Positions 4,818-60,091 of a stretch of 64,000 bases of DNA are shown here, in pieces (positions within the stretch are counted from its first letter, which is position 1; each line of letters starts with the position of its first letter). The DNA comes from an uncultured bacterium (GTDB lineage Bacteria; Babelota; Babeliae; Babelales; Babelaceae): contig CAVRKK010000002.1 of NCBI GenBank assembly GCA_963722385.1, forward strand, positions 768,001 to 832,000. Reading direction: 5' to 3'. Below the pieces are notes generated by a model. The model searched no databases. It was not told where the DNA came from and saw only the letters and a program-made list of their open reading frames with translations. Made by a program: the position numbers and the translations under genes.

Positions 4818-6080
4818 ATGAAAATTGCACGTGTTATTGGACGAGAAGTGTACGATTCACGCGGCTGGCCCACCCTCTTGGTTGAGTTGTTGCTCAGTGA
4901 TGGTTCTCTTTTTACGGGATATACGCCATCAGACAGTGTATCAAGCCGCTACCAAGCACACGAAAAGCTTGACAATGATAAGCGATTTGGTGGCAAGGGA
5001 GTCCGTAAAGCAATTGCAACAATTGACGAAGTCGTCGCTCCCTTCTTGGTCGGCAAAGAACCGATTATCCCCGAGCTTGATTTTGCCCTTATAAGCCTTG
5101 ACGGCACAACCGACAAATCAAACCTTGGCAGCAACGTACTTATTGCCCTCAGTATGGCACTCTACCGGGCTCACGCGTTTATTGAGCGCGTTGAGCTCTA
5201 TGAATTATTAGCGTACCTTGTTGGCGCTGATTCAGTAACCTTGCCCTGCCCACAAGTGACCCTCCTAACCGGCATCAGGACCATCAATGAAAATCTCTGC
5301 ATTCAAGAATGCATGATCGCACCGATCGGCTCATCCACACTCCAAGAAGCGCTTGAAGCCAGCTTTACTCTTTACCATGAACTCAAAAATATGCTTTTTG
5401 TCCGCGGCAAGCTTGTTGGCTTTGGTGATAATGGCGGCCTTGTAGCACCTTTTCATGATGACAGGCAGGCCCTTGATATCGTACTTGAAGCGGTTGAGCA
5501 GGCAATGCATAATGGTGCTCAAGGCTTTGGTATAGCATTAAATATTGGCGCCAATCATCTTTATGATGAGTCGTTTGAGCGGTACCGCGTACATGGGCAG
5601 GCAATAACCCGCCAAGAGCTCGTCAATTTCTATAACGAACTTGTTCAGACCTACCCCATCTATTCGATTGAGGACGGCTTGAGCGAAAATGACTGGGAAG
5701 GCTGGCGCCTGCTAACCGAGACACTGGGAGATAAGGTCCAAGTTGTCGGTGGCGACGTCTTTGCAACCTCGCCCGATCGGTTAAATAAAGTGACTGATTA
5801 CAATGTCGCAACGGCAGTTCTTATAAAACCGCATCAAATCGGCACTATTACCCAAGCAGTCCAAATGATTAACCTCTGCAAAAAGTACCAGCTCAACCCT
5901 ATCGTTTCGCTGGGTGGCGGTGAAACCGAAGACTCATTTATAGCCGATTTAGCCATCGGCACCAGCGCGGGACAAATCAAAGCCGGTGGCTGCTGCCGCA
6001 GCGAACACGTGGCCAAATACAATCGCCTATTGGCTATCGAGGAATCTCTAATCTCGGGCCGCGATCGCTTCCTGCTGTAA
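4818..6080 (+). CDS. Enolase homologue, probably catalytically inactive
   Basis: Full-length enolase pattern (DSRGWPT, GKGV, SIEDG, LIKPHQIGT, GETED, GQIKAG, AKYNRL), but the SGAST, His, GDEGG, two Mg-binding Asp and SHRS positions are substituted. RBS AAGGAG. Confidence 0.85.
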   Translation: MKIARVIGREVYDSRGWPTLLVELLLSDGSLFTGYTPSDSVSSRYQAHEKLDNDKRFGGKGVRKAIATIDEVVAPFLVGKEPIIPELDFALISLDGTTDKSNLGSNVLIALSMALYRAHAFIERVELYELLAYLVGADSVTLPCPQVTLLTGIRTINENLCIQECMIAPIGSSTLQEALEASFTLYHELKNMLFVRGKLVGFGDNGGLVAPFHDDRQALDIVLEAVEQAMHNGAQGFGIALNIGANHLYDESFERYRVHGQAITRQELVNFYNELVQTYPIYSIEDGLSENDWEGWRLLTETLGDKVQVVGGDVFATSPDRLNKVTDYNVATAVLIKPHQIGTITQAVQMINLCKKYQLNPIVSLGGGETEDSFIADLAIGTSAGQIKAGGCCRSEHVAKYNRLLAIEESLISGRDRFLL

Positions 6081-9065
6081 CTCTAACATTTCCTGGGTAG
6101 AAGGTTGCGGCGAGGCTTCTTTGCCGCGCCTCAATGACGCGTCAAATGTTTCAAGCGGCACCAGCGTCTCCTCGGCACGCGATGACGGAGGTGGCGCCTT
6201 GGCAATGTCTTCCGCCGGCACAAGCCGGGTTTCACGCATATAGTCTTCGACAATATCTGATTCTGCCGAATCTAAGCCAAAAAAGAAGCGCACAATCGGG
6301 TCCTTTTTATTGCCCATGAAGCTTTCATCGACAGGGCGCAAGCCTCCTCTGATCTTACGCGTCGTGTATTCACGCATGCTTGTCCTTCGACGCGGGTCAA
6401 CAATTGTCGGCCTGATAAAAATGCCCAATTCAGTTTCAGTAACGATCTCGCGATCGCCCCGGAAAAACCAGCCTATAATCGGGATGCGGCTCAAGATCGG
6501 CGTTTCTGTTACGAGTTGGAGCTTTTGAGTTTGCGTGAGCCCACCAATAACAAGCACCTGGCCGGGCCCCCGGTGACTACCACCCTTAAGGTTGACACAT
6601 GTTTGCACCTTGCGTGTATTACGCGTGAAGCCGACGTCAGACGTAAATTGCGTGACATCAACCACAACTTCAAGATTAAGCCGATCAACAGAGCTAATGC
6701 GTGGCGTCAAGCTCAAGCTGAGCGTCGCCGGAATATCGCCAATGTTCACCTGAATAGCACCACCCGTCGAGCTCGAGCCATCAGTCTGTGTCCGCCGGAT
6801 AAGGGAGCTATATACCTGAGCATTCGTATTATTAAGAGCAATTAAATGGGGATGGGAGAGCACTTTGGCATGCCCAATGTTGTCTAAAATACTCAAAAGG
6901 CCCCAAATACCCGTGCCCGCCGGATCATTAAAGGAGACCGCAGCGGTTCCCGGCGCTGCCGGAATAATCGTGCCCGTCGTATCGGTAAAGAACCGCAAAA
7001 GGTCACCCGTAATCGTGGTGTCAGCCGGGCAAGCGGCTTGAGCAAGATTTTGCGCCGCCTTGCTAGCACCGGCCAGGCTATCTTTAAGGCTGTTGGTGGC
7101 CTGAGTTGCCTGGCTAAGCGCTTGAGCCTGTGTAGATGCTCCCGCTTTAACGGCATTACCAAGGCTTCCTGCTGCGCTGGCAAAATCATTCGCTGCTTTT
7201 TGCAAGATGTCGCCGGTCAAGAGCTGACTCGCTCCGGAGGCTGCTGCTGCCATACATTCGGCGCTCGTTAAAATGTTGCTCGTAATATGGGCTGCCTGAA
7301 AGCCAGCCCCTGGCAAGAAGTCAAATCTACTCAAATTGCGTACTTGACTGTTGAGCCGTTTATCGAGATCCCGCTCGTAATCGACGATAAGCACTTCGAG
7401 GATAACCTGCAATTGCGGTACATCAAGCTTGTCGACCAATTTTCTGAGCTGTTCCCAGTCGGAAGGCTGGGCCGCTATGAGGAGCCTATTGCCCCCCTTA
7501 TAGACTGTGCCAGCCGTTGATCCCTGGTCAAATTCCGAACCAGCGGCGGCGCCTTGCGCTGGCTGGGGCGACTCAACCGGCTGGTAGGTTTCTGCACGAA
7601 TCACCACGCCTTCAAAAAACCGGCGCGCACCCGAAATCCTCTCTCCCGCCTTTTGTTCGCCAAGGCCTGATGAGGTAACAACACTCGTAAGCACTTCAGC
7701 AAAAGACTGCGCATCAAGGTACTTTAAGTCATAGACATGGAAAATGGAAGTTCCCGAGTCAAGCGGTGCATCCATATATTCTCGCACAAAGCTTTTCAAT
7801 CGATTGACAGGCGCTTCTTTGCCCATAATGATCAGCGTGTTACGCCTGGTATCCGCTACAACGCGTATATTGGTTGAAAAATAAGAGCCAATCGTCGTCT
7901 TTGGCTCATTGCCTATTATTTTATTTCTGCCGGCAACGGCCAAAATTTGCGAATTGAGCAACTCGGCGACATAGTGCGCATTCGCATTATAAAGCTGGAG
8001 GGTAGCAAGAGCGTGCTGTGCACTTGACGAATCAAGCTCGCTGAGAATTTGCAAGGCCGCCGTAACGACACGTGCTTTGTCGGTGATAACGATAGCGTTG
8101 GATACAGGGTCAACAAAAACATTGGTCGGCGCCGATAAAATCTCCTTAAGAATTACCAACACCGGGTTGCTTGCTTGGTCGTCAACCTTGAGATTGGACA
8201 AGTAATATATTGCACGTATAAAAGCATTATTGGCCGGAAGATCTTCAGGAATAAGCTTACTTGTTGTATCAAAAACGTAGAGCGGAAGCTCATTCGTTTG
8301 CGCTTCCTTGCTCTTGATAATAACCGTAAAATCTTCGTTCGGCGATCGCGTATACCCGACATAATCCAAAAATAGATCAAGATACTTTTCTGCTTCATCA
8401 ATCGTCAAGAGCCGACCTGGCTTAAACGTAATTTTTTGCTTAAGAGCAGCGGTTTGTTGCGGTACAATAATATTGAGCTTTGTTTTACGTGCAAATCGCC
8501 TGATTACATCGGTCAAATCAGCATTATCAAACGTAAAATCAATCAAATCTTCTGGTGTTTTAACTACTTTTTGTGGCACTTGTTTGGCGGTAACCGGAAC
8601 AGCTGCTTTTGCCGCTTGTGCTTTTTTTGTCGGCCCGCGCACTTCTTTCCAGGCGCTCACCACAGGTGGCCCAGCAGCGGCTTTTTTGGCCTTTTCTGCA
8701 GCCTCTTTTTTTTGCGCTGCCGCTTCCTTTTTTGCTTTTCGAGCTGCCGCTCTCTTTTTGGTAGCAGGCTCTTTTACTTTTGCTTCTTGTTCTTTTTTGG
8801 CTTGGGCAGGCTCTACCGGCTTAGGTGCCGCAGCTGGCTGTGCTGGTTTCACTGGCACTGTCGGTGCTACCGGTGCAGGAGGCGTAACCGGCTGCGCTGG
8901 TGTCACGGGCGGTGTAACGGGTACCGCCGGCTTCGCTGGCGTTTCAGGCACCGGCTGCCATTTTACGACAGGAGGGGGCGCCCCATTTTCAGCAGCATGA
9001 ATCGCCTGGCCACATCCTAGAGCGAGTAGTATGATAATATTTTTCTTAAGTGTATTGTTTACCAT
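6048..9065 (-). CDS. gspD: Type II secretion secretin GspD-like, copy 2, with a long Pro/Ala/Lys-rich N-terminus
   Basis: Signal peptide, N0 domain (IDFTFDNADL), N-domain repeats (VADTRRNTLII) and secretin C-domain motifs (QVILEVLIVD, LVIGGL, PILSRIPIIGWFF). Confidence 0.85.
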   Translation of the reverse strand: MVNNTLKKNIIILLALGCGQAIHAAENGAPPPVVKWQPVPETPAKPAVPVTPPVTPAQPVTPPAPVAPTVPVKPAQPAAAPKPVEPAQAKKEQEAKVKEPATKKRAAARKAKKEAAAQKKEAAEKAKKAAAGPPVVSAWKEVRGPTKKAQAAKAAVPVTAKQVPQKVVKTPEDLIDFTFDNADLTDVIRRFARKTKLNIIVPQQTAALKQKITFKPGRLLTIDEAEKYLDLFLDYVGYTRSPNEDFTVIIKSKEAQTNELPLYVFDTTSKLIPEDLPANNAFIRAIYYLSNLKVDDQASNPVLVILKEILSAPTNVFVDPVSNAIVITDKARVVTAALQILSELDSSSAQHALATLQLYNANAHYVAELLNSQILAVAGRNKIIGNEPKTTIGSYFSTNIRVVADTRRNTLIIMGKEAPVNRLKSFVREYMDAPLDSGTSIFHVYDLKYLDAQSFAEVLTSVVTSSGLGEQKAGERISGARRFFEGVVIRAETYQPVESPQPAQGAAAGSEFDQGSTAGTVYKGGNRLLIAAQPSDWEQLRKLVDKLDVPQLQVILEVLIVDYERDLDKRLNSQVRNLSRFDFLPGAGFQAAHITSNILTSAECMAAAASGASQLLTGDILQKAANDFASAAGSLGNAVKAGASTQAQALSQATQATNSLKDSLAGASKAAQNLAQAACPADTTITGDLLRFFTDTTGTIIPAAPGTAAVSFNDPAGTGIWGLLSILDNIGHAKVLSHPHLIALNNTNAQVYSSLIRRTQTDGSSSTGGAIQVNIGDIPATLSLSLTPRISSVDRLNLEVVVDVTQFTSDVGFTRNTRKVQTCVNLKGGSHRGPGQVLVIGGLTQTQKLQLVTETPILSRIPIIGWFFRGDREIVTETELGIFIRPTIVDPRRRTSMREYTTRKIRGGLRPVDESFMGNKKDPIVRFFFGLDSAESDIVEDYMRETRLVPAEDIAKAPPPSSRAEETLVPLETFDASLRRGKEASPQPSTQEMLELQQEAIAARD

Positions 9066-9071
9066 TGCTTA

Positions 9072-9623
9072 TTATGATGTCAATTTAGGTTGTAAAGTAG
9101 CAATTACCAATGTCACATCGAGCAGTGATGCTTTGGGCGATTTTATCAGCACAAGCTCCTTTGGATAAACACGGTCATTTTTTTCAATCTTATAGAGAAG
9201 CTCCGCCACCTGCTTCATGTTCATCTCTTTAAAGCTACTATCAAGCTGCACTTCCTCATAGCCGTTATTCAAATCACTTTCAGCAACCGTTGGCTCTTTG
9301 CTCATATGGTTGCTCAGCCCAAGCTCTTTAACCAGCAGGTCAAAATATTGGGGAATTTTAAAATTTTTGTCTTTGGCAAGAATCTCGTCCACCGTAGCGC
9401 GCTGCTGATTAATCAAACGATACTCTTGCAAAATAGCGCGCGCTTCCTCGCGCTGCTGATTAATGCGCCTCAGTCGTTGTTCAAGTGCCCCAATACGACG
9501 CCGTTGAAAAAAAATAAGTGCTCCCAGAAGCAAGAGAAAAATACCAAGAAATATCCCTAAATATTGGTAAAATTGCTTTTTCTCAAGCTCTTGTAAAAAA
9601 TTTCTAAATCCTGCTACCGTCAT
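9072..9623 (-). CDS. gspM: T2SS GspM/PilO-like inner-membrane protein
   Basis: One N-terminal TM helix, a coiled coil and a ferredoxin-like C-terminus. Its start overlaps the gspL stop. Confidence 0.65.
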   Translation of the reverse strand: MTVAGFRNFLQELEKKQFYQYLGIFLGIFLLLLGALIFFQRRRIGALEQRLRRINQQREEARAILQEYRLINQQRATVDEILAKDKNFKIPQYFDLLVKELGLSNHMSKEPTVAESDLNNGYEEVQLDSSFKEMNMKQVAELLYKIEKNDRVYPKELVLIKSPKASLLDVTLVIATLQPKLTS

Positions 9624-11197
9624 GATGCTCCACCCAAACTTTTAGCAAGAATTAGTTTAGCTGAAAATGTAAGCTCTTGTAAGCGAGACACGCTCGTAAA
9701 GAGCTTTGATCGCCTTAGGTCTTCTTCCAGCTGCTTGAGGGCTTCATAATCCTTTACCTTACCTTCGAGATTTAGCGAGTCTTCGGTGAGCGTTAATCTC
9801 GTCAATACAAGCCCCAGCCCATCAGCATCGATACGCGTACTCAATTCTTGGAGGTACATCAAAAAAGATGCTCTGTTCTGCGTCGATAGTGCAAACCAAA
9901 TATTCTTTTCGCGCGCTACTTCGGCCCGCGATGCCTTTATGGCCATGTCAAGCGACGCGCTCTTGACACGCGGCACAATCGCTGGAAGCTCCTTCTTGAG
10001 CCGATCGACTGCCTCTTTTTCTGATTTTTGAATTTCTTGACGTAACCGCCGCGCATTAAACAGTCCATGCGCTACCAGCGAACAGATCGTGAGCACCATA
10101 AGCGCGATTGCGGTAATAAGCTGGCGGTTCAACAGTGTATCTTGGGCGACAATTTCAGGAGCTCGATAAAGGTTAAAGTCCTGGCTGGCGGGAAGGGCCA
10201 AGCTGGCGCTCGTGCTTATCACCGACTTATTAGGGATGCCGTGGTTTCCCTTAAGCTTAGCAAGATTGTGCTGCACCAAGGCTTGGCCGACGAGCGTATC
10301 GCACGGCAATCCCGTAATCTGTTCAATAAGAGCAGGCAGTCCCTTAACATCTGCTGCGGGCCCCATGAGCAGAATTTTTTGTAATTTTTCATCCTCAGGC
10401 ACGCGAACCGTAAAAGCCTCCAGTGTAAATTGTACGTCGCCTAAAAATGTCGCGGCAGATGCGCTATCATCTGGTGAAAGGGCGCTGTGCATCAGCTGCT
10501 CAAGATTGCCATTCTTAAGCCGAGCAAGCGCGGCAAGACCATGAGGCAAAAATCGAACAGCCTTCAATTGCTGCTGCACAATAACTTCTAAACGACTACT
10601 ATTCGTTCCCACGTAAAACAGAAGGATATTCCCATCCGCAATTTTGGGGTAGAGCGCTTTATAGAGAGCATATAATTCAATGGCATCGACGGTGGCCCTC
10701 GTTGGGAGTAAACCAGCGGCTTCGTAAGGAGCAAATTGCTCAGCAAGTGTTTCATGCTTAATAGCCACTGCCATCACCACCGAATGGTCCGCTTGCATGC
10801 TCGTAGTTATACAGTCTACCGTCGCCTCGCTTAAAGCAAAGGGCAGCAAGGGCTCAATTTCGAATGGTAACACGAGCTTGATTTTTTCAGGACTGGTAAA
10901 CGGCAAGCGTAACTCCTTAAAAATCACCGTGTTGGCCGGCATAACGATCGAAAGCTGACTGTAGCGACCAACTGATGAGAAAGCTTGGGTCAACGCGCTT
11001 GCAGCCCGCTCAGCGTAAGACTTTGTTGCATCATCTTCAAGAGGCACCTCAATAATCTGCTCAATGGTTCTCACCCTGCCCGCTATCTTCGTCGCGGTGA
11101 GCCGGACATGATTCTTCGTGAGCTGGCAAGCAACCAATCGCTGTGCAAAAACGTAATAGTCACCAATCTGGTCAGGTAAAAAAAGGGAGCGGATCAT
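9620..11197 (-). CDS. gspL: T2SS GspL (PilM-like cytoplasmic domain, TM helix, PilN-like domain)
   Basis: LRLPF..KIKLVLPFEIEPLLPF motif, a single TM helix and a periplasmic LNLEG domain, located between secretin genes. Confidence 0.75.
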   Translation of the reverse strand: MIRSLFLPDQIGDYYVFAQRLVACQLTKNHVRLTATKIAGRVRTIEQIIEVPLEDDATKSYAERAASALTQAFSSVGRYSQLSIVMPANTVIFKELRLPFTSPEKIKLVLPFEIEPLLPFALSEATVDCITTSMQADHSVVMAVAIKHETLAEQFAPYEAAGLLPTRATVDAIELYALYKALYPKIADGNILLFYVGTNSSRLEVIVQQQLKAVRFLPHGLAALARLKNGNLEQLMHSALSPDDSASAATFLGDVQFTLEAFTVRVPEDEKLQKILLMGPAADVKGLPALIEQITGLPCDTLVGQALVQHNLAKLKGNHGIPNKSVISTSASLALPASQDFNLYRAPEIVAQDTLLNRQLITAIALMVLTICSLVAHGLFNARRLRQEIQKSEKEAVDRLKKELPAIVPRVKSASLDMAIKASRAEVAREKNIWFALSTQNRASFLMYLQELSTRIDADGLGLVLTRLTLTEDSLNLEGKVKDYEALKQLEEDLRRSKLFTSVSRLQELTFSAKLILAKSLGGAS

Positions 11198-14169
11198 GGG
11201 CAGACCTCAGGTGTACGTTTTTGGACAAAGTCATACAATTTTTTTGTCCTTATGGCACCAGGTGGCTTGAGGCTTTGGCTACCCTTGATCGGCGATGGCG
11301 GGGGCGGTTGAGCGGGCAAGGCGCACGGGCGATTAATTAAGAAATTTTCGATCGGGTCACGCAATGGCTGCTCAAAAGACTCAGGGGGTGAGCCTATAGC
11401 CATTTCTGGTGGCATCGTCGGCGGCTGGCCTTTCCTACGCCCTCGCAGACGCGGTGGTGGCGGACCCATTGGTCCTGGTGGTAGTTCCGCCATCGGCGGC
11501 ATTCCCTCGCCTTCTGGGGCACGCGCCATTCTGCCGCGCATACGGACTGCAGTCTTTCGCCTTTTCTTGCGCTCTTTTTGATCAGCAGTTGGGTTTGAGT
11601 TAAAGTTTCTCATCAGAGCGCCTATTTGATCAATATCGTCCTCAAAGAACCATCGATGAATAGGGTCCTGCAATTGCTCATCACACATCATGGAATCAAG
11701 CAAGTTTTGGGCACTTGTCATTTGTGAATTGGTAAAGGCTTCTATTCTATTAGAGGCATGAGGGTTAATCACTTCTGCCGAAATCAGAATAAGCAAGCTT
11801 GCTTTTTGGACGGATTTTCGCCTGCTTTTGAAGAACCAGCCAAGGACCGGAATATCGCCAAATATCGGCACCTTAAACTCGCTCTCTGATATAACGTCCT
11901 GCGTCAATCCGCCGAGAGCAAGCACCTGATTGTCTTCTACAATCACCGACGTGGTAATACGCTTATCGTCTCTATTGCCCTGTGATGGGTTATCAGACGG
12001 TACGGCGGTATTGCTGGCGGCAAGAGTGAACGTACTGCTATCAACCGTCACCGTAAGCGTTATCAGGCCATCAGGGCTTATCTGCGGCATGATATCAAGT
12101 GTCAAGCCAGCCTCTAAGTCGCCAAAAGTTGGCACACTCGTATTCGAGCCACCAACGATCGTCGATGTTATAACGTGGCGAACCTCGGTGATCTGTATCT
12201 GAGCATTATACTTATGCGTCGTGACGATGAATGGTTTTGCAACGATCGAAGTATTCAAATAGCTTTGCAGAACTTTAAAGAGGCCCCAAACGCCAAAAGC
12301 ATCGGTGCCCAAGGTCACGAGCGTCGACCCAACGACGTTTGAGCTTGCAAGGTCTACCAGGTTACCCAATAATCGGACAGCGCCGCCCATACCCGGTGGC
12401 TTGGTCGAATCGTTGACCACAATTGACGAATTGGCACCATTGAGTGGCAAGCCAGATGTTTGAAAGTTAACATCCGGGCTGAGCGAGCCATCAAGCGTTG
12501 GTTTGCGGTTACGAAGCTGCATGCCAAACTGCCGACTATTGGTCGCATTAACATTAAGAACGAGCACGCGTATAGCAACCTGCGGCTGCTCCGTATCAAC
12601 TTTTTGAAGCAACTCGTAAATTTGCAGGTAATCATCATAGTCAGCATTGATAATTAAGCTATTAGTCGACTTTTCAGCCGTTACCGTTACCGTTGGCTTG
12701 AGGAACTTAGTGCCACCAATAACACCTCCAAATTGGGTTACGCCCGCGGCGCTCTCGGGACTAAAGCCCTTAAGCTCATTAACAATCTGAGCCATTGCCT
12801 CGGCATCGATATATTTAAGCGGGTAGACATGCAATGGGGAGTAGGGCAAATCAATTTCTTTATCAATCTCTTTACGCACAAAGAGCTCTATTTTTTCAAC
12901 ATTACTTCGCGGCCCGAGAAGTATCAGCGAATTAGTACGTGCATCGGCAATAACACGCACGTTTTCGGTAAAGTAAGCAACCGTCGATTGCTTTCTGCCC
13001 CCCGGGCTTAAACGTGCCAGGAGCGACGTTTCCTCTTTTACGAGCGCATCATAGAGCGCTTTTACCTTAGTTGCATCGGCATTTTCCAATTTGATGATAA
13101 CGAGCGTCTCGGGCAACGTTGGCTTGTCGAGCTCCTTAAGAATAGCCAGGATTGACCGGATATTGCTCGAGCGGTCAGCCAAAATAAGCGCATTGAGATC
13201 TTCGATAAGAATTGGCTGCCCCGCGATGGCACTCTTTAAATTGTCAGCAACATTTTTAATAACAGCAGGCGTCGTATTTTGAATAAAGTACACATAACGA
13301 ATTTTAACATCATTTGTTGGCAAGAGATTATAATCGATGCCGATAAACGTAGGCACCGGGTCCTTGCTCGTACTGAATGTTGAAGCGCGTGCGTTATTGG
13401 TGATAAGATATGCCCGCTCTTCAGGCCCTGGAATAATCATCAAGCCCGCGAGATCAAGAAACTTAACAAAGAAGTTCCATGCTTGTTTCTTATTAAGCGC
13501 AGCCTCAGTCCTAAAAGAAAATTTAACTCCGGTAACCAAGCGCGCACCGGGTTCAGGTGGCTTAATAATATCATCGAGTATAAACGTAAGCTCGTACTGC
13601 TTTTCAAAATAACGAATGAGGTTGATCAGCTCGGCATTTTCAAAATTTATATCAATCTTTTTTTCACCCTTGACATACTCCCATGGGTTAAGAAACTGGC
13701 CCAGGTACGCGTAATTGGCAAGCGGTGTTTCAGCTCGTTCTTCTTCTTGTTCTTCGATTTCCGTTTCAGCTTCTTCGTTGATTTTTTCTTCGAGATCACG
13801 CATCACTTTTTCAGCTTCCTCAATTCCCGTCATCGGTTCGCTCAATATGACCGGCGCGTGCTTTTCTTCCTCCTTAAAGTCAAAGGTAACTGATAAAGCA
13901 GGCAGTGGGGGCACGATGGTATTCAGTCTTTCATGAAGCTGTTGCAATAATCCCTCTTTGCTGGCAATCTCTTCTTTCAGCTTTTCAAGAAATGCCATAT
14001 TTTTGCTTTTAACCCAGCTTCTTACTTCAGGGGCGGTTGCGGCCCTAAAGATCTCGTGATCAACGCCTTCCTGAATTTCCAATGCACGGGTATCGGCAAA
14101 GCCGATCACACTGATGACCATCAATAAAAGGTACCAATTTTTACCTAAGCTATTCATTGCAATTCGCAT
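11194..14169 (-). CDS. gspD: Type II secretion secretin GspD-like, copy 1, with an N-terminal coiled coil and a Pro/Met-rich C-tail (alternative start 14157)
   Basis: IDINFENAEL N0 domain, IADARTNSLIL repeats, QVAIRVLV, LALGGL and KVPIFGDIPVLGWFF secretin motifs. Confidence 0.85.
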   Translation of the reverse strand: MRIAMNSLGKNWYLLLMVISVIGFADTRALEIQEGVDHEIFRAATAPEVRSWVKSKNMAFLEKLKEEIASKEGLLQQLHERLNTIVPPLPALSVTFDFKEEEKHAPVILSEPMTGIEEAEKVMRDLEEKINEEAETEIEEQEEERAETPLANYAYLGQFLNPWEYVKGEKKIDINFENAELINLIRYFEKQYELTFILDDIIKPPEPGARLVTGVKFSFRTEAALNKKQAWNFFVKFLDLAGLMIIPGPEERAYLITNNARASTFSTSKDPVPTFIGIDYNLLPTNDVKIRYVYFIQNTTPAVIKNVADNLKSAIAGQPILIEDLNALILADRSSNIRSILAILKELDKPTLPETLVIIKLENADATKVKALYDALVKEETSLLARLSPGGRKQSTVAYFTENVRVIADARTNSLILLGPRSNVEKIELFVRKEIDKEIDLPYSPLHVYPLKYIDAEAMAQIVNELKGFSPESAAGVTQFGGVIGGTKFLKPTVTVTAEKSTNSLIINADYDDYLQIYELLQKVDTEQPQVAIRVLVLNVNATNSRQFGMQLRNRKPTLDGSLSPDVNFQTSGLPLNGANSSIVVNDSTKPPGMGGAVRLLGNLVDLASSNVVGSTLVTLGTDAFGVWGLFKVLQSYLNTSIVAKPFIVTTHKYNAQIQITEVRHVITSTIVGGSNTSVPTFGDLEAGLTLDIMPQISPDGLITLTVTVDSSTFTLAASNTAVPSDNPSQGNRDDKRITTSVIVEDNQVLALGGLTQDVISESEFKVPIFGDIPVLGWFFKSRRKSVQKASLLILISAEVINPHASNRIEAFTNSQMTSAQNLLDSMMCDEQLQDPIHRWFFEDDIDQIGALMRNFNSNPTADQKERKKRRKTAVRMRGRMARAPEGEGMPPMAELPPGPMGPPPPRLRGRRKGQPPTMPPEMAIGSPPESFEQPLRDPIENFLINRPCALPAQPPPPSPIKGSQSLKPPGAIRTKKLYDFVQKRTPEVCP

Positions 14170-15251
14170 TACTTCTGGGGTATTCGCTGTAGTAGTGCCT
14201 CATGGCTTCCAAATTTTCTCATAGCTGCTTGATCTCTTTTTTGTATTTCATATGCTGCTGGTGGTAGATGGGCAAGCGAGCTTGCTTCCATCGCTCTGGG
14301 TAGCTCGCTTTGCAAGCTGAGTGGTTTTGCTGAACTTATGTGCTGCAGTATCACCACGAGCTCATGTACTTTTTCTTGCCGCAGCAGCCGTACTCGTATT
14401 GTTTGGCCCAAGGTAGCATTCTTCAATGACTGGTAAGCGGTTACGCGCTCCTGGGTTGTCGCAAGCGGCATGTTATTAACGTGAGTTACTATATCGCCGG
14501 TCTGCAAGCCGAGTGCGTAGCCCAGTGATTGGTCAGGCATTCGACCAATATGGCAGCCAATGCTTACATCGCGCTCAAATGCTGTCGTCATATCAAGCAT
14601 ATCGACAAATTGCGCTACGCTGGTTATTTTGCTTTTCAGTATATCTGGATCAATGGCATACGACCAGTCGGTAATTTTTTGCACGGTTTTCTCCCATGAC
14701 GTATCATGCGCAAAAACTGGGTCTTCTGATGCGTCCTGCGCCGTCAAGAAGAGCGTTTCTTGCTGGCCATTAGAGCGTATAAAGATGACTTTATCGCGCT
14801 CAATTCTAATAATTTCGGCGTCTTCTAGTATACCACCAACTGCATAAATCTCTTCTTTTTTAGTTTTTTCATCGGCAATAATTGCTCTATTGTCTTGCTC
14901 ATCACTGCTCGTGATTATACCTTTCAAGCTTATTTTGAGCGGCTCGAGAAATTCTATGCGCGGCTGGGGCAGCGGCATCGGCATCAGCGGGATAGGCGGA
15001 GGCGGCGGCACGACGTTCACTTTTTCTGGTTCGATTGGTTTAAGTGGCGGCTTATAGGTATTAAAGAGGTCATTATTGTAGATACGGCTTAAGTCGATGG
15101 GGAAAAAGGGTTTTTTGGCAGGCGCAACAGCGGCGCTCGGTGTAAGCGATTTACGAGCTGGAGGCGCTTTTCTGGTAAAAAAAATAACACATAAAACGAG
15201 GAGCCAAAGGAGCGCTAGGCTCGAAGTGAGCACCCAGAGTGGATTTCTCAT
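14169..15251 (-). CDS. gspC: T2SS GspC (TM helix, HR domain, PDZ domain)
   Basis: TM helix, poly-Pro linker, LKGII..RAIIAD..EEIYAVG HR domain and GLQTGDIVTHVN PDZ motif. ATG at 15251 follows AAGGAG. Confidence 0.85.
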   Translation of the reverse strand: MRNPLWVLTSSLALLWLLVLCVIFFTRKAPPARKSLTPSAAVAPAKKPFFPIDLSRIYNNDLFNTYKPPLKPIEPEKVNVVPPPPPIPLMPMPLPQPRIEFLEPLKISLKGIITSSDEQDNRAIIADEKTKKEEIYAVGGILEDAEIIRIERDKVIFIRSNGQQETLFLTAQDASEDPVFAHDTSWEKTVQKITDWSYAIDPDILKSKITSVAQFVDMLDMTTAFERDVSIGCHIGRMPDQSLGYALGLQTGDIVTHVNNMPLATTQERVTAYQSLKNATLGQTIRVRLLRQEKVHELVVILQHISSAKPLSLQSELPRAMEASSLAHLPPAAYEIQKRDQAAMRKFGSHEALLQRIPQK

Positions 15252-15424
15252 ACTCTCCTTTGTTTGAGCTCTGCATACCAATGCAACAAGACAATACTCT
15301 CGTTGAATAACAAATTTGTCAAGATACATCTCCACTTTCTAAAGCTATCACAGTATAGCCGAGCAACGCCTTCTTTAAAAGAGGCAATTTTTGAGGGGGA
15401 GGCCTCCGCGGTTTCGCCAAGACT

Positions 15425-15588
15425 CACCTACGCAGTGGGCGCGACTCCGCGTCGAGCGGCAGGGCGGCGGCCCTGCACCCACACCAATATATACGAGCGC
15501 AATGCTCATTTTCGCTGTCATGAATGCCGTAACCATGCGGAGCGCATGATTTTACGGCAAACGCAATTTTCCTGACGGAAAATAGATT
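15425..15588 (-). repeat. Dispersed ~165 bp intergenic repeat, copy B
   Basis: Reverse-complement match to 1700-1864, with a divergent middle segment. Confidence 0.85.
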
Positions 15589-15690
15589 TTTATCATGGAG
15601 CGTAGCGAACATGATAATGGCGTAAGTTATCGTACGCTTTTGCGTACGATAACTACTCACCAAGCTTATAAGCATTAAGCATAACGCATC

Positions 15691-15734
15691 GGGATTGTTA
15701 AGGGACGCTGTCCCTTAACCGCTAGCCGCGCAGG
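15691..15734 (+). repeat. REP-like hairpin unit of the same family
   Basis: GTTAAGGGAC/GTCCCTTAAC stem followed by CCGCTAGCCGCGCAGG, similar to CCGCTCGACGCGCAGG (reverse complement of 1378-1393). Confidence 0.6.
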
Positions 15735-15753
15735 CGATTCTATTCGCTACTTG

Positions 15754-17818: not shown

Positions 17819-18838
17819 ATGAAAAAAAATGATCTTTTTGCGGGCATTCCTGAGGCAATCCTCGAAAAGCGCAAGCATATTGCGCAGCCCTCTTTTATTG
17901 AGCCGATGCTGGCGACCTTAACAAAAGACTATTTTTCAAGCAAAGACTGGATCTATGAGCATAAGTTCGATGGCGAGCGCTGCCAAGCCATTAAAAAAAA
18001 TGGCAAAGTCATGCTTATGTCGCGCACGCAAAAGAGCATAAATCTCGAATATCCCGAATTGGTCACGGCGCTTGAGCAACAAAAAGCTGACGATTTTATT
18101 ATCGACGGTGAAATTATCGCGCTTAAGGGTGGCCTCTCAAGCTTTGAACTGCTTCAATCGCGTATAAACTTGCAAGACATCGCTGCTATTGCAAGACGAG
18201 AAAAGCGTATCCCAATAGGCTATGCTATTTTTGATATCATGTACGTCGGTGGTTACGATGTGCGCGATCTCCCTTTATTAGCAAGAAAACAGTTGTTACA
18301 CAAATTGCTCGATTATAACCAAATCTTGATCTATACCCAGCACCGCTCACCTGACGGCGTAAAATATTTTCAGCAGGCATGTAAATTGCATTGGGAGGGA
18401 CTTATCGCAAAGCGCTCAGGAAGCACCTACGTGAGCATACGCTCACGCGACTGGCTTAAGTTTAAGTGCATCATGAAACAAGAGTTTGTCGTTGCAGGGT
18501 ATACCGATCCAAAGGGATCACGCACTGATTTTGGCGCTCTCCTCGTCGGCTACTATGAAGGAAAAAAGCTGCTTTATGCCGGCAAAGTGGGGACTGGATT
18601 TGATCATATAGCTTTAGAGCTTTTAGGGAAAAAGTTACGCGCATTACAAACCAAGATTTGCCCATTTGATAACTATACACTTTCAACCGCCGGTGTTCAT
18701 TGGGTTAAACCCCAGCTTGTAATCGAAGTACAGTTTGCTCAGTGGACCAACGCGAGCAGGCTACGCGTTCCCCGTTACAAAGGCTTACGCGACGATAAAG
18801 CCGCTCGCGATGTGGTGAAAGAAGTGCCAACTGGTTAA
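17819..18838 (+). CDS. ligD: ATP-dependent DNA ligase (LigD ligase domain only)
   Basis: PMLA, EHKFDGER (KxDG), IDGEI, EGLIAK, WLKFK and YAGKVGTGF motifs, plus an OB domain. Confidence 0.9.
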   Translation: MKKNDLFAGIPEAILEKRKHIAQPSFIEPMLATLTKDYFSSKDWIYEHKFDGERCQAIKKNGKVMLMSRTQKSINLEYPELVTALEQQKADDFIIDGEIIALKGGLSSFELLQSRINLQDIAAIARREKRIPIGYAIFDIMYVGGYDVRDLPLLARKQLLHKLLDYNQILIYTQHRSPDGVKYFQQACKLHWEGLIAKRSGSTYVSIRSRDWLKFKCIMKQEFVVAGYTDPKGSRTDFGALLVGYYEGKKLLYAGKVGTGFDHIALELLGKKLRALQTKICPFDNYTLSTAGVHWVKPQLVIEVQFAQWTNASRLRVPRYKGLRDDKAARDVVKEVPTG

Positions 18839-54758: not shown

Positions 54759-55905
54759 CAGGACTTCCTCAAAATCTCCAAAGATTTGATCTAGCTTGAC
54801 TTTTGAGTAAAAAAATACTCTCCTAACGGTTGGAAAAAACCAAAAAAAGGAGAGTATTATGCTTACTAGTAGCACCATATTAACATACCCATTGCTTTTA
54901 ATTTTGTCGAATGGCAAAAGAAGTTTTCAAAATTTAGGCAGATTAATTGCTAAAAGTGGCGATACAATCAAGCGATACCTTCGGTCATCATCACTAAGCA
55001 TGGAATTGATGGTGCAATTAGCGAATACTATGTTTTTGAAAAAGAGGCATTTGGTTCTGGTAGTTGATGATACGTTAATCAGAAAAATCTATTCTCGCTT
55101 TATGGAGGGCTCTGGACGATTTTATGACACAAAAATTGGGCGATCAATTACTGCCTATAGGCTAATTGCTGCAATAATAACTGACGGTAGGTTTGTAATG
55201 CCTATTAATTGCGCATTTATGTTTGCGAAAGAACTTGTATCAGAGTCTGGTAAGATAAAATCGAAAGAAGATTTTTTTAAAGAGTTTGTAAAAAATGCAA
55301 TAAAGGTGTTTCCCGATAAAAAAATTCGCGTAGCAGCTGATGGATTCTATTCATCGATTAACATTATAAAATGGTGTCTTGATAATAACATTGAATGCGA
55401 AATGCGAATGCACAAAAATCGAAGAGTTGAATACAATGGGAAAAGCGTTGTAATAAGTGAAATAAAAAAGCTAATTCCAGTTGGGAGGCAAATGGCGAAA
55501 ACAATCAAAGTTATTTGGCATGAAATGCGCGTATACATCACTGCCGTCAAGCGTATTGATAAACATAACATCGAAAGCATCGTATATCAGGTTTCGACAT
55601 ACCACGCTTCACCTGATGAACACGCACAAACTTATAAAAAAAGATGGGGCGTGGAAAAAGTTTTTCGCACTATTAAGCAATATTTAGGTCTGGAGGAGTG
55701 CTTTTCGAGAAAATTAGAATCGCACAGCGATCATGTGACTGCTGTCTTTGTGGCTTACTCAATAGCTCAGTTGGAAATGAGAAAAAGAAAATTAGATACC
55801 CCAGAAGACGCTCTTAGAGCTCTTAAGTTTAAAAAATACAATGCTCTAGAACATCGATTGTCTGCATTGCATCAAATCTTTAACGTTGCTCATGCGTAAC
55901 TTCTG
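54759..55905 (+). mobile_element. IS701/IS4-like insertion sequence
   Basis: Imperfect terminal inverted repeats (CAGGACTTCCTCA and TGCGTAACTTCTG) around a DDE transposase. Confidence 0.65.
54859..55899 (+). CDS. DDE transposase (IS701/IS4-like)
   Basis: VVDDT, AADGFY and Y..RW.VE..FR..KQ.LGL motifs. Confidence 0.9.
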   Translation: MLTSSTILTYPLLLILSNGKRSFQNLGRLIAKSGDTIKRYLRSSSLSMELMVQLANTMFLKKRHLVLVVDDTLIRKIYSRFMEGSGRFYDTKIGRSITAYRLIAAIITDGRFVMPINCAFMFAKELVSESGKIKSKEDFFKEFVKNAIKVFPDKKIRVAADGFYSSINIIKWCLDNNIECEMRMHKNRRVEYNGKSVVISEIKKLIPVGRQMAKTIKVIWHEMRVYITAVKRIDKHNIESIVYQVSTYHASPDEHAQTYKKRWGVEKVFRTIKQYLGLEECFSRKLESHSDHVTAVFVAYSIAQLEMRKRKLDTPEDALRALKFKKYNALEHRLSALHQIFNVAHA

Positions 55906-56449
55906 AAAATAGTTACTCGTCTCTCATAATATTTAGCTGTTTTAGCTTTTGTTTTTATGTTGTACACATAATTTGTGTACAGTGTGTACACGCGGCTGTG
56001 TACAATAAGATGAAAAATCATTCCAAAAATATGTTGCAATCGCAGGATTGTTATTTTGGGGTAACGGTTGTTAAACAGAGTAAGCATTTTGTACACAAGC
56101 AAAGTGAGCTACAGCAAGCCATAACACATATATTTAGGTAGCTGTACACACGGGTAAAAAAGACAGCATTTTTATACCATGTATCAGTCGCGTGAGAGCG
56201 GCTACTGATTTGTTTTTATAGATCGGTTGATAAACATCGGTTGATAAACAGAGACGAAGCTCTGTGGGGGCTATTGGCTTAATCGGAAAAGACGAGAAAG
56301 CAACATTTCTTAAATTAGTAGCTCATAAATTGCGGCATGATGAACAGGCCTGCCGCGTAGGCCAATGGCCCAAAAATGTTGACTTTTATTGAAAAAATAC
56401 ACCATAATTGTATTATAATCTTTTTTTAAGCCATACAAAGGAGTATACG

Positions 56450-56836
56450 ATGAAATTTAATAATTCATTTTTACAAGGTTTTGTTTTAGCAGGCTTACTT
56501 ATATCGACCAGCGCTCTTTTCAATCAAGTTGGCGGTGAATATCCTCCTCATTATGAGTGGAAAAATTATTGCGCGGTATTGCTCAATAGTACTCATGAAA
56601 GAGTCGCCGGCTCAATTCAAGTACGTGCAGCGGAAGGAAATTTAACAGGAAGCTTCTTTATTGAGCCAGGCCAAACAAAATTACTGTCAGGCCCAATGGC
56701 TATGAACGAGCAAGCTGAGATCATAATTTCGAGCCCGAAGGTAGCTTATTATACGCTTAGAGGTGTAGAATCTTCACGAGAAACAGGATGCGAAAATCTA
56801 ATTTACGACGGTACTCAAATTCGACCTGTAGAATAA
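56450..56836 (+). CDS. Hypothetical exported protein
   Basis: AAGGAG RBS, signal peptide, upstream TTGACT-N18-CATAAT and a downstream hairpin at 56868-56893. Confidence 0.7.
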   Translation: MKFNNSFLQGFVLAGLLISTSALFNQVGGEYPPHYEWKNYCAVLLNSTHERVAGSIQVRAAEGNLTGSFFIEPGQTKLLSGPMAMNEQAEIIISSPKVAYYTLRGVESSRETGCENLIYDGTQIRPVE

Positions 56837-56968
56837 AACAATTAAAAAAGCCATCAGAGGCTATAAAGACCTAGCGCTACAGAGTGCTAGGTCAGTCATA
56901 CTTCGCCAATGCTTTTTGTGGGACCTCGCTCGCCGGGAGCAGGTGCTATCTGTTATAGTTTGCAAGGT

Positions 56969-57344
56969 CTAAGAAACTATTCTAAGACTTCGTTTATTGA
57001 TATATTGACCAAGCGAAATATGGTTAGTATAACCTAAAAATCTAGCTATCTTCCTGATCGATAGACCAATTTGAAGTAGTTCTTTAATTTTATCAACATG
57101 CTTGTCAACTCTTTTGAATCGTCCCTTTAGGTTTGCCAATCCTAATTCCCTGGCGCTTTTTGGCAGCGAGCGCTTCTCGCGTTCTTTGGCTAATAAGATC
57201 CCGCTCAAGTTCAGCGAAGAGGCAAAACATAGTAATCAGTACTTTTGATCCCATGTCCTGATGATTTGAATCTAATCCCTGCTTTATGACAATAAGTCGG
57301 ATATTGCGCTTGATAAGATCATTAATAAGGCTCATAACTTCGGC
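56969..57344 (-). pseudogene. Partial duplicate of the serine resolvase (3' half, frameshifted)
   Basis: Near-identical to 58214-58594, lacking the N-terminal catalytic region and with a 5-nt deletion near 57108. Confidence 0.8.
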
Positions 57345-57426
57345 GTTACCTTGTTTAGAAAGTGAGCGATAAAGAGATTCACGATTTAGAGTATCGTAAC
57401 GCAAGCTGCGTCACAATTAGTAGGTT

Positions 57427-57741
57427 TTAATTTTTTCTACTAGAACGAACTTCGAAATAAAAGTCCAATGTTCTTAATATAGAAATGAGATTTTTGATTT
57501 TTGGGTTACCTTGTTTAGAAAGTGAGCGATAAAGAGATTCACGATTTAAGTGAGTATCTTTCGCTAAATCGGTCATTCCTTTACCCTGTGCTTTTAATAC
57601 ATTTTTGAGTGCTACGAGAAAGACTCTGGGGTCTTCATCTTGTAGAGCTGCGTTAATATAGGCTTCTGCTTCTTCAGGGTCTTGAAGATCTTGCATAAGA
57701 ATTTCGTAGTAATCAACCTCATTATTTTTTTTATTCTTCAT
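57427..57741 (-). CDS. Addiction module antidote, HTH antitoxin (HI1420-like)
   Basis: YINAAL..DP..FL.AL..V.KA..GMT.LA....NRESLYRSLS..GNP pattern. Confidence 0.88.
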   Translation of the reverse strand: MKNKKNNEVDYYEILMQDLQDPEEAEAYINAALQDEDPRVFLVALKNVLKAQGKGMTDLAKDTHLNRESLYRSLSKQGNPKIKNLISILRTLDFYFEVRSSRKN

Positions 57742-58078
57742 AAGGTGCCTCTTTCGATGTTTTATTATAGATGCTCCAATAAGCTTTTGCTTTATCAATA
57801 TCTCGATCTTGGGTGCTTTTATCTCCTGCTATAAGTAGTATAACTTTAGTAGAGCCTTTTTCTCCAAAATATATTCTATAACCTGGCCCATAGTGTATAC
57901 GCAATTCCTGTACACCATTTCCAACAGGATCACAATTCCCGGAGTTCCCTATCTTCAAACGATCAATGCGGATTCTCATGATTGCCCTTGTTTTCGTATC
58001 TAGTTTGTAGAACCATTTGAAAAATGGGCTTTTTCTATAGTCATTTGTTGACTCAGGAATATAAACCGTAATAAACAT
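57731..58078 (-). CDS. Addiction module killer, RelE/ParE-family toxin (HI1419-like)
   Basis: PF.KW...L..RIDRL..GN.G...VG.GV.ELRIHYGPGYRIYF and GDKSTQ.RDI..A motifs. Confidence 0.9.
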   Translation of the reverse strand: MFITVYIPESTNDYRKSPFFKWFYKLDTKTRAIMRIRIDRLKIGNSGNCDPVGNGVQELRIHYGPGYRIYFGEKGSTKVILLIAGDKSTQDRDIDKAKAYWSIYNKTSKEAPYEE

Positions 58079-58213
58079 TGGCGCCTCAAAATTAATAGCC
58101 CTATTGTAGCTTTAATGCTACGAAATGTCAACAAAACCAATAAATTTTGCGAAGTGCACAGTAAAATGGCGAATTATATGGGCAGCCATAAGGAATAGAT
58201 GTGTTCTTAGCTT

Positions 58214-58832
58214 CTAAGAGACTATTCTGAGGCTTCGCTTATTAATATACTGACCAAGCGAAATATGGTTAGTATAACCTAAAAACCTAGCTATCTTCCT
58301 GATCGATAGACCAATTTGAAGTAGTTCTTTAATTTTATCCACATGGGCATCAAACTTACTCTTTTGAATCGTCCCTTTAGGTTTGCCAATTCTAATTCCC
58401 CTGGCGCTTTTTGGACGCGAGCGCCTCTCGCGTCCTTTGGCTAATAAGATCCCGCTCAAGTTCAGCGAAGAGGCAAAACATAGTAATCAGTACTTTTGAT
58501 CCCATGTCCTGATGATTTGAATCTAATCCCTGCTTTATGACAATAAGTCGGATATTGCGCTTGATAAGATCATTAACAAGGCTCATGACTTCAGCTGTGC
58601 TTCTGCCCAGCCTACTCAGTTCCGTAACAAGCAACGTATCAAAACCCGCAAGCCTTTCAACAAGCTCTTCAATGCGTCTCTCGATAGCTGTTTTTCTTGA
58701 AGAAGCTTCTATTTCTATAAAATCATCTACCTTTATATCTTTCCTGCGCGCGTATTCAAGAATTTCTAATTTTTGATTATTTAAGTCTTGTTTGTCACAA
58801 GAAGTTCTAATATAAGCAATTGTCTTATTCAT
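58214..58832 (-). pseudogene. Serine resolvase/invertase split by a +1 frameshift before the HTH
   Basis: YIRTS..KQ, ELSRLGRS and AELERDLISQRTREAL motifs. A G4 run at 58398-58401 (G3 in the duplicate) moves the HTH out of frame. Confidence 0.82.
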
Positions 58833-59000
58833 CGTTTTTTCCGGTAAGTATTAAGGCAAAAATACAAACAAAACTATACAAAATAAAGCAGCAATTTACC
58901 AGTAAAGAATGAGGCAAAATATTTGAGAAAAACCGGCCGATTTTGCTTACCGCTGCTCGCTGCAAATTTAAGTTGGTAAGATCTACTGGGCTACTAACAT

Positions 59001-59040
59001 TTGACTTAGTATAATATAATGAACTATAATATATTATATT
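59001..59040 (+). promoter_or_regulatory. Candidate promoter and operator of the second TA pair
   Basis: TTGACT-N18-TATAAT overlapped by the inverted repeat AATATAAT..ATTATATT. Confidence 0.55.
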
Positions 59041-59057
59041 GAAGCTTCTTTAAGATT

Positions 59058-59393
59058 TTGTCTAAGAAAGATGATATGAAAAAATGGAACATTAAGTATT
59101 GGGCCAATGACCAAGGGAAAGGCTTAATAGAACAATGGCTCAATCAGTTAACGAAAGAGCAATTCAAATCTGTTGCCAAGGAAATCGTCATGCTTGAGCT
59201 TGCTGGTAATGAATTAAAACTTCCACATAGCAGATCCTTAGGCAAAGGATTATTTGAATTAAGGGAGCGTAAGTATGGATATCGCATATATTACGCTTTT
59301 ATTGGCAAGATGGTAATTATCCTTCTTGCTGCAGATAAGAAAAGTCAGAAAAATGATATTAAAATTGCTCGTGAACGTTTATTAGAACTATAG
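59058..59393 (+). CDS. RelE/ParE (HigB/Gp49-like) toxin; ATG at 59076 is a possible start
   Basis: W+I.YW, LPHSRSLGKGLFELRE..YRIYY and KKSQ..DI..A..RL motifs. Confidence 0.85.
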   Translation: MSKKDDMKKWNIKYWANDQGKGLIEQWLNQLTKEQFKSVAKEIVMLELAGNELKLPHSRSLGKGLFELRERKYGYRIYYAFIGKMVIILLAADKKSQKNDIKIARERLLEL

Positions 59394-59404
59394 AAAGGGA
59401 AACC

Positions 59405-59725
59405 GTGAAAACAAAAAGCTTCCGCAAATACCTTGAAGAAAGACTTAATAAAAACGAAATTGCAGATATTGAAGCGCAAGCAGAGCTAGAAACAAAGATT
59501 TTACAGGCAATGCAAAATATTATTGCAGATACTATAGATGATTATCTCAAAAAACATGATATAGGTTTTAATGAGCTCGTTAGAAGGCTAGACTGGAGCC
59601 CCTCCAAAGTTGTAAAAGTACAACGCGGAGAAGCCAACATGACCTTATCAAGCTTAGCGCATTTATTTGCTCTTGTGGGAAAAGATCCTCGAGAAGTTTT
59701 TGTACCTAACAATCGCTCAAAATAA
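59405..59725 (+). CDS. XRE-type HTH antitoxin (HigA-like)
   Basis: ELVRRLDWSPSKV.KVQRGEAN.TLSSL HTH, directly downstream of the toxin. Confidence 0.8.
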   Translation: MKTKSFRKYLEERLNKNEIADIEAQAELETKILQAMQNIIADTIDDYLKKHDIGFNELVRRLDWSPSKVVKVQRGEANMTLSSLAHLFALVGKDPREVFVPNNRSK

Positions 59726-59733
59726 AGCATTAA

Positions 59734-59961
59734 CTATTTATTTTCATGCTGCTCTACAAAGCCCAAGATTTTTGATATTACCGCATATATCGCTTTCTTT
59801 TCATCGACCAGAAATGAGCGTAATGTTGTTGGACTTATCCCCATTTGAACGGCCATCTTAGCAATTGATAGCCCTGCTTTTCTGTTAACAATAAGTAGTC
59901 GCTCGCGTATGGTATCTTGATTCTTTTTATGCAAAAGTTCTTTGTAGCTATACCCTGCTAT
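59734..59961 (-). CDS. Small HTH protein; the start codon reads ATA where the paralogue has ATG
   Basis: Paralogue of 51987-52193. A GGGGA RBS precedes ATA at 59961. Confidence 0.5.
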   Translation of the reverse strand: MAGYSYKELLHKKNQDTIRERLLIVNRKAGLSIAKMAVQMGISPTTLRSFLVDEKKAIYAVISKILGFVEQHENK

Positions 59962-60063
59962 GTTTGTCCCCCTGAGTAATGATCTTAAAGATTCAAAAAA
60001 TTGTATCAAATTATGCGAAAATAAGCAATTTTGTATTATCTCGTAAAATATGTAATTTTTTGC

Positions 60064-60091
60064 TTGACTTTGTTTTGTATTGTTATATAAT
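60064..60091 (+). promoter_or_regulatory. Near-consensus sigma70 promoter
   Basis: TTGACT-N16-TATAAT. Confidence 0.6.

Follow-up and report, generated by a model that had tools for sequence, protein, structure and literature searches.

Two GspD paralogs in one type II secretion operon of Babelota and the evidence for a probable mixed secretin ring

The secretins of canonical type II secretion systems (T2SS), represented by GspD, PulD, XcpQ, ExeD, and EpsD (PDB 6hcg, 5wq7, 5wq8, 5zdh, 6i1x, and 5wln), consist of 15 copies of one chain, encoded by a single gspD gene that adjoins gspE, gspF, and gspG. Here, we describe a T2SS operon encoding two different secretins, D1 and D2, in a 64,000-nucleotide stretch of the genome of an uncultured bacterium of the phylum Babelota (assembly GCA_963722385.1, contig CAVRKK010000002.1, positions 768,001 to 832,000; hereafter the window). 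Both proteins share the N0–N3 domains, double barrel, AHL motif, and gate of the canonical secretins. The Babelota system differs from the canonical one in that its two paralogs (23–38% identity) are separated by gspL and gspM and its motor genes are found elsewhere. No match to a PulS-type pilotin (PF09691) was found in this genome (93% complete); AspS-type pilotins were not searched for, and a pilotin is not universal in T2SS.

An earlier study reported two gspD copies in all of its seven TM6 (Dependentiae) genomes and counted T2SS components in the core gene set (PMC4776705). This is the same feature as seen here, so the locus is not undescribed, as an earlier, sequence-only reading of the window had suggested it might be. 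The accessible part of that report mentions neither the operon order nor a mixed ring; it describes pilQ as absent and raises, without deciding it, the possibility that one gspD takes its place. It is the only paper we found in the open-access literature that joins TM6, gspD, and pilQ. In our data, by comparison, a PilQ-like secretin occurs in many families, and both gspD copies persist with or without it. The nearest parallel to D1 and D2 is the GspD and GspDL pair of the mitochondrial T2SS-derived system, likewise two co-occurring paralogs of the secretin C-domain, for which its authors suggested an elaborated pore (10.1101/790865). That system is eukaryotic, truncated, and split, and it lacks N0, the S domain, and GspC; the accessible part of the source shows no mixed ring. 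The BfpB–BfpG complex of the type IVb pilus is, as we propose for D1 and D2, a secretin channel complex of two different proteins (PMC12531336). We found no paper in the open-access literature describing a ring of two secretin paralogs. To our knowledge, BfpG is not a full secretin paralog that contributes barrel strands. The gene pair is thus already known; a mixed T2SS secretin built from both paralogs would be new and is testable. The ladders of coupled residues reported below, together with a control set of other secretins, lead us to conclude that D1 and D2 probably co-assemble into one hetero-oligomeric T2SS secretin ring, the first of the options raised by the sequence-only reading, and not into two separate pores.

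The operon and its conservation across the phylum

The five-gene operon gspC-gspD1-gspL-gspM-gspD2 proposed by the sequence-only reading is present, with all of its genes on the minus strand where that reading placed them:

14169..15251, minus strand: gspC, 360 residues, with transmembrane, homology region, and PDZ domains; above the PF11356 cutoff and matching NF041515 GspC_delta (E=1e-21). The assigned start is an ATG with a AAGGAGAG ribosome-binding site that agrees with the family consensus; the open frame itself begins with a GTG at 15335
11194..14169, minus strand: gspD1 secretin, 991 residues, with signal peptide, disordered N-terminal tail, N0-N1-N2-N3, secretin barrel, AHL, S-like helices, and proline-rich C-terminal tail
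9620..11197, minus strand: gspL, 525 residues, with a cytoplasmic PilM/GspL-like domain and a PilN-like periplasmic domain; above the PF11104 cutoff, with matches to PF05134, PF05137, and TIGR01709 (E=3e-7)
9072..9623, minus strand: gspM-like gene, 183 residues, named by its NF040576 match (E=0.004) and its position behind gspL
6048..9065, minus strand: gspD2 secretin, 1005 residues, with the domain order of D1, an Ala/Pro/Lys-rich N-terminal tail, and a helical insert in the β1–β3 loop
about 7035..7262, minus strand: alanine-rich helical insert of D2 (about residues 602–677), placed by the predicted model and by loop-length comparison

The genes overlap by 1 to 4 nucleotides, apart from a 6-nucleotide gap ahead of gspD2, whose 3′ end overlaps a convergent enolase gene by 33 nucleotides. 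D1 and D2 each exceed the Pfam Secretin and Secretin_N cutoffs, and the best NCBIfam model for both is TIGR02517 GspD, at scores below its cutoff (220 and 234 versus 351). The best sequence and fold matches of both are T2SS secretins (GspD/PulD in the PDB). The predicted models of both contain N0–N3, eight barrel strands, and post-barrel helices, with tails of low confidence, and the barrel, AHL, and GGL motifs are retained in each. Within this genome, the two are 26–28% identical over two aligned blocks. The β1–β3 loop of D2, which carries the insert, is 143 residues long against a median of 79 and is the sole loop above 120 residues among 164 sequences. The gspM-like gene bears the weakest name in the operon: T2SSM matches were obtained for four of 17 scanned orthologs, one of them above the cutoff.

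The sequence-only reading had also drawn attention to the size of the secretins, about 1000 residues each. This stands for the two window proteins and fails as a family trait. D1 ranges from 709 to 1142 residues (median 891) and D2 from 732 to 1041 (median 845), both are at least 950 residues long in just three of 130 pairs, and the conserved core is about 650–680 residues. We therefore dropped giant size as a defining trait, the extra length being variable, disordered tails predicted with low confidence. A self-piloted lipoprotein secretin was ruled out because neither paralog has a conserved lipobox cysteine; a lipobox-like motif occurs in four of 129 D1 and 10 of 129 D2 sequences.

Synteny across related genomes shows the two-secretin locus to be conserved. 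Among 201 genomes of the phylum, 197 have at least two secretin matches, three have one, and one has none. The gene order D1-L-M-D2 is unbroken at 131 of the 142 operon-centered loci, which come from 20 families; a further six are truncated at contig ends and five are interrupted, and median intergenic gaps across loci range from −4 to 8 nucleotides. These loci were selected through secretin or gspL matches, one of the 142 is a duplicate (L125, dropped in favor of L047), and the counts do not extend to the operons of some 40 more genomes in which gspL was matched. Neither paralog is systematically missing or decaying in relatives; the sequence-only reading had named such absence or decay as grounds for rejecting its proposal. 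Copy number varies in places, giving three-secretin operons: on one branch of family f1, six loci (L046, L051, L054, L055, L060, and L061) carry two D2 genes in tandem, and at one other locus (L083, genome G055) D1 has a second, fast-evolving copy. D2 is the less conserved paralog (mean identity 37% versus 41% for D1). Where homologs of D1 and D2 have named sources, these are Candidatus Babeliaceae, Babeliales, and Dependentiae.

In secretin phylogenies, D1 and D2 together form a single GspD-type clade (support 100) separate from PilQ, and neither groups with PilQ, a grouping that the sequence-only reading had listed as refuting it. D1 is a clade with support 97 in one tree and is paraphyletic in another; D2 is a clade with support 94 in one tree, and its monophyly is unresolved in two others. 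The D1 and D2 subtrees mirror each other (L048_D2 and L102 were excluded from this tree). The joint clade and mirrored subtrees indicate that the duplication is older than the sampled families.

Coupling between the paralogs in the secretin barrel

Each secretin subunit supplies four outer-barrel and four inner-barrel strands (PMC6532946, PMC10550240). With the inner strands in the order β4-β5-β6-β7, the barrel geometry, considered before the scan, and the control indicate that a contact between β4 and β7 should arise only between subunits. We used Gaussian direct-coupling analysis on 164 locus-paired D1 and D2 sequences (129 from genomes and 35 from metagenomes; effective number, Meff, about 142), with only the first D2 of tandem loci, and took nearest-neighbor re-pairing of D1 with D2 sequences as the null. 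The expected within-subunit ladders were recovered in both paralogs at matching registers, and the strand limits agree with the models predicted later. The regions concerned are as follows:

6795..6821, minus strand: D2 β4, residues 749–757, predicted by coevolution to pair with D1 β7
11950..11976, minus strand: D1 β7, residues 732–740, predicted by coevolution to pair with D2 β4 of the neighboring subunit
12193..12222, minus strand: D1 β3/β4 turn, residues 650–659, predicted by coevolution to make the reciprocal contact with D2 β7
6594..6623, minus strand: D2 β7, residues 815–824, predicted by coevolution to partner D1 β3/β4

The top inter-paralog ladder joins D2 β4 to D1 β7, with a score of 6.3–6.8 and rank 1 of 1456. 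None of 88 re-pairings reaches 6.3; across all ladders, the nulls peak at 5.63. The same ladder also heads the list of 84,339 unselected windows, where none of 129 nulls reaches it. It keeps first rank when the pairs are split into non-overlapping sets of 76 and 88 and when the sequences are realigned independently, and it is robust to altered pseudocount and weighting. Second among distinct windows comes the reciprocal pair, D1 650–659 with D2 β7, at 5.6, a value reached by none of 129 region-restricted re-pairings. Gene conversion was rejected as a source of the coupling, since D1–D2 identity is no higher within one genome (32.5%) than across neighbors (32.3%). Outside the barrel, no clear D1–D2 ladder was seen in N0–N2, where the best score was 5.0 (this block had no null run of its own). 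Coevolution of GspC with N0–N2, examined for signs of the GspC-binding paralog, gave nothing above the null, with observed maxima reached by 12 and 40 of 66 re-pairings.

As a control, we used 226 other secretins (Babelota PilQ-like proteins and outgroup PilQ and GspD), which were assumed to form homo-oligomers. In these, the β4–β7 ladder falls within a single protein and occupies registers 1394, 1396, and 1398, all of them even; scores at odd registers are close to zero. A β3–β8 ladder appears at register 1399. We summed four control-defined ladders into a score T (null means 1–2, standard deviation about 2). The control reached 16.0, D2→D1 13.7, D1→D2 7.9, and D1–D1 7.6 (8.5 with 305 D1 sequences), and neither inter-paralog score was reached by any of 34 re-pairings. 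The D1–D1 value does not show the even/odd parity pattern and leans on one asparagine. An inter-subunit D2–D2 ladder gave no signal (T 2.1, p=0.32), though the within-subunit ladders of D2 match those of D1 in strength.

Structure prediction of a complex between D1 (445–846) and D2 (438–932) scored 0.60, against 0.00 for the best control; the runs share at least 68% of contacts, and the partner pLDDT (predicted local distance difference test) is at least 63. The mark used was attained by 116 of 157 solved complexes and two of 215 mismatches, and at 0.60 or below by 18 of the 157 and both mismatches. The prediction gives weak backing to a D1–D2 pairing.

Several observations weigh against a mixed ring or limit the weight that the coupling can bear. 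The alignments are shallow and lists of single coupled pairs are noisy. The D2 β4–D1 β7 ladder ranks first in only seven of 12 random halves (2, 5, 13, 51, and 83 in the others), and its rank falls to 11 when only the 26 pairs of clade A are used, to 18 for the 35 from metagenomes, and to 12 under average-product-corrected mutual information (MI-APC). The reciprocal ladder is reached by nine of 129 global null maxima and lies four registers off (1392 versus 1396). The registers for T were taken from the control after 1396 had already been seen, the homo-oligomeric state of the control secretins is an assumption, and the inter-subunit status of β4–β7 is deduced from barrel geometry and the control. 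The D1–D1 score (7.6–8.5) is as high as that of D1→D2, so D1 homo-contacts or homo-rings are possible. The complex score may reflect likeness to solved homo-rings and does not separate homo- from hetero-assembly. Among the relatives, a gspL match is missing in three of 71 genomes searched (G102, G184, and G199), one paralog is broken and the other whole at L133, L141, and L154, and several genes are broken at L102 and L148; assembly error and decay are indistinguishable at the interrupted loci.

A probable shared ring weighed against other arrangements

The first alternative to a mixed ring is that D1 and D2 form separate homo-rings that dock on the same GspC/L/M platform and serve different substrates or life stages. 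Each paralog does have the full domain set with the barrel, AHL, and GGL motifs, every solved secretin matched has 12–15 chains of one sequence per ring, the D1–D1 signal is present, and the second D2 in six f1 loci and the second D1 in one show that copy number can change. Separate rings would, however, leave the antiparallel D2 β4–D1 β7 ladder at the control register unexplained, and the D2–D2 signal that they call for is absent even though the within-subunit ladders of D2 are as strong as those of D1. A dispensable channel would also be expected to be lost from genomes of 0.8 Mb, yet both copies are kept in such genomes (G008 and G024). We consider this arrangement unlikely.

The second alternative, the guess raised in PMC4776705, is that the T2SS uses one copy as its pore and that the other substitutes for PilQ as the exit of a type IV or competence pilus. 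This genome has a second filament set and ComEC without a PilQ-like gene, a combination that needs some exit, and ComEC is present in 51 of 51 genomes. Many Babelota genomes, however, encode a third secretin of 450–630 residues that groups with outgroup PilQ (support 98). PilQ is its best model in 10 of 12 cases tested, all below the cutoff and one in a near tie with GspD, and the gene sits behind PilO-like and PilP/HofP-like genes, for which the matches are mostly weak. By clade and neighborhood, this third secretin classifies as PilQ, whereas D1 and D2, with their own clade and gspC/L/M as neighbors, do not. In all 16 PilQ-like carriers whose operon was fetched, D1 and D2 persist intact beside the pilO-pilP-pilQ-like cluster. 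Furthermore, in nine of the 50 relatives the T2SSE ATPase and GspF are each present only once, without the second ATPase and PilC-like gene, and all nine (from five families) retain both secretins intact. Because both copies are kept with a PilQ-like gene present and with only one ATPase and GspF, they track the T2SS and not the pilus. D1 and D2 also have four N domains and group together, not with PilQ, and a PilQ substitute would leave the inter-paralog ladder unexplained. We regard this explanation as quite improbable, and it is possible that the mixed ring also serves a pilus in lineages without PilQ.

The pilO-pilP-pilQ-like cluster occurs in about ten Babelota families (L104–L118, L120–L123, and L063), often behind an M23 peptidase gene and, at three f10 loci, behind a long GspE-like ATPase gene; these clusters contrast with the statement that pilQ is absent from TM6 (PMC4776705). 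In genome G199 (80% complete), the PilQ-like gene is the only secretin shown. At the clade-A loci L064, L065, L071, L072, L073, and L100, ComEC is matched downstream of gspD2 at a distance of up to about 3 kb. One further locus, L119 (G072:C9), has MshL-like secretin genes clustered on a contig of 9 kb and of unlike composition whose proteins look high-GC; it is probably a binning contaminant and was excluded from both the PilQ-like set and the control.

In the remaining alternative, common descent gives rise to the coupling as a statistical artifact, and the second copy acts on D1 as an accessory or assembly factor without belonging to the mature barrel. This reading could draw on the same-column D1/D2 coupling (0.51 versus 0.09–0.33 in the null, mainly in AHL, β9, and the S region) and on the lower conservation of D2 and its mostly missing pivot glycine, but we give it very little credence, since re-pairing with nearest neighbors retains ancestry yet removes the ladder, the ladder lies on the same strand pair and parity as in the control, and the D2 barrel is complete.

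In the mixed ring that we favor, the operon would supply the GspC/L/M linkers and the two GspD-type secretins of one T2SS. D2 β4 would pair with β7 of a D1 neighbor and, more weakly, D1 β4 with D2 β7, such that each D2 would be flanked by D1 and never adjoin another D2. Such a ring could be either an alternating one, for which the subunit count must be even, or (D1-D1-D2)5. The latter would keep 15 subunits and accommodate a real D1–D1 contact, and it fits because D2→D1, D1→D2, and D1–D1 signals are present and D2–D2 is not. GspC, GspL, and GspM, for which a heterotrimer role is described (10.64898/2026.05.07.723501), would link the mixed ring to the GspE/GspF motor and the pseudopilus. By analogy with the established T2SS mechanism, GspE and GspF would drive a GspG–K pseudopilus that pushes folded periplasmic proteins through the ring.

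The paralogs may also contribute unequally to gating, which is suggested because D2 mostly does not have the glycine that serves as the pivot of the central gate in GspD (PMC10550240). In this genome, the position is as follows:

12187..12189, minus strand: D1 Gly661, at the alignment position of the glycine on which the central gate of GspD pivots; the corresponding residue of this D2 is Ser754

The glycine is kept in 159 of 164 D1 sequences and 198 of 226 control secretins but in 64 of 164 D2 sequences, and D2 has none in 15 of 20 families. A stronger version of the mixed ring, ordered phylum-wide with fixed positions ((D1-D1-D2)5 or alternating), with a gate made asymmetric by the loss of the D2 pivot glycine and a three-subunit repeat in lineages with a third copy, is one that we put forward tentatively and with considerable doubt.

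If true, a mixed ring would show that the 60-strand barrel can be built from two proteins sharing only about 30% identity. It would also provide a naturally occurring case in which to study what determines the number of subunits, the opening of the gate, and the mismatch in symmetry between the ring and the GspC/L/M platform. The question left open in PMC4776705 becomes a direct test with named residue pairs. Pairs on the predicted ladder include D2 749 with D1 740 and D2 755 with D1 734, and D1 657 with D2 817 belongs to the reciprocal one. The locus also points to a conserved export route in a phylum of intracellular protist parasites. The few Babelota isolates described are strictly intracellular in protists (PMC12172432), and signal peptides were reported on 44% of the proteins of one isolate of the phylum (PMC6561590).

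The remaining secretion genes and other features of the window

As the sequence-only reading had noted, gspE, gspF, and the pseudopilin genes are absent from the window. All of them are encoded elsewhere in the genome, so their absence reflects gene scattering and not loss. The GspE ATPase (570 residues, at C2:642008) passes TIGR02533 (660.9 > 630.25) and not TIGR02538 PilB. A gspF-gspG-gspH-gspI cluster and two more pseudopilin-like genes also lie away from the window: the best model for gspF is TIGR02120, below its cutoff, gspG passes TIGR01710, and the gspH- and gspI-like genes follow. The names gspJ and gspK were assigned from position alone, and the J candidate has no Pfam match. The genome thus encodes GspD-type secretins, GspE, GspF, GspG with minor pseudopilins, and GspC/L/M (L and M by weaker matches and position), as is expected of a T2SS. 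Two Omp85 genes indicate an outer membrane. Exactly two secretin matches were found in the whole genome (93% complete), and no third secretin or PilQ-like gene was found in it.

The second filament set of this genome comprises a 382-residue ATPase without the usual N-terminal part, a HofC-like protein, a PilA-like pilin, minor pilins, and ComEC. It is scattered over four places:

G000 C2:289841-290989, C2:955216-956403, C2:734315-734797, and C1:96433-97696: second filament set

Neither PilT nor PilQ was found alongside this set in the genome.

Between gspC and mlaF (window 15424-15747), and again at about 1697-1864, lies an intergenic repeat, roughly 320 bp long and dispersed in the genome. 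It has 47 more blastn matches in the genome at 70–96% identity and resembles miniature inverted-repeat transposable elements (MITE) or repetitive extragenic palindromes (REP); Rfam gave no match anywhere in the window, including this repeat. A 4.5-kb segment (window 55899-60400) has no open reading frame of at least 150 residues and gives 20 blastn matches in the genome, including the self-match. Window 17819-18838 encodes a stand-alone ATP-dependent DNA ligase with LigD-like ligase domains.

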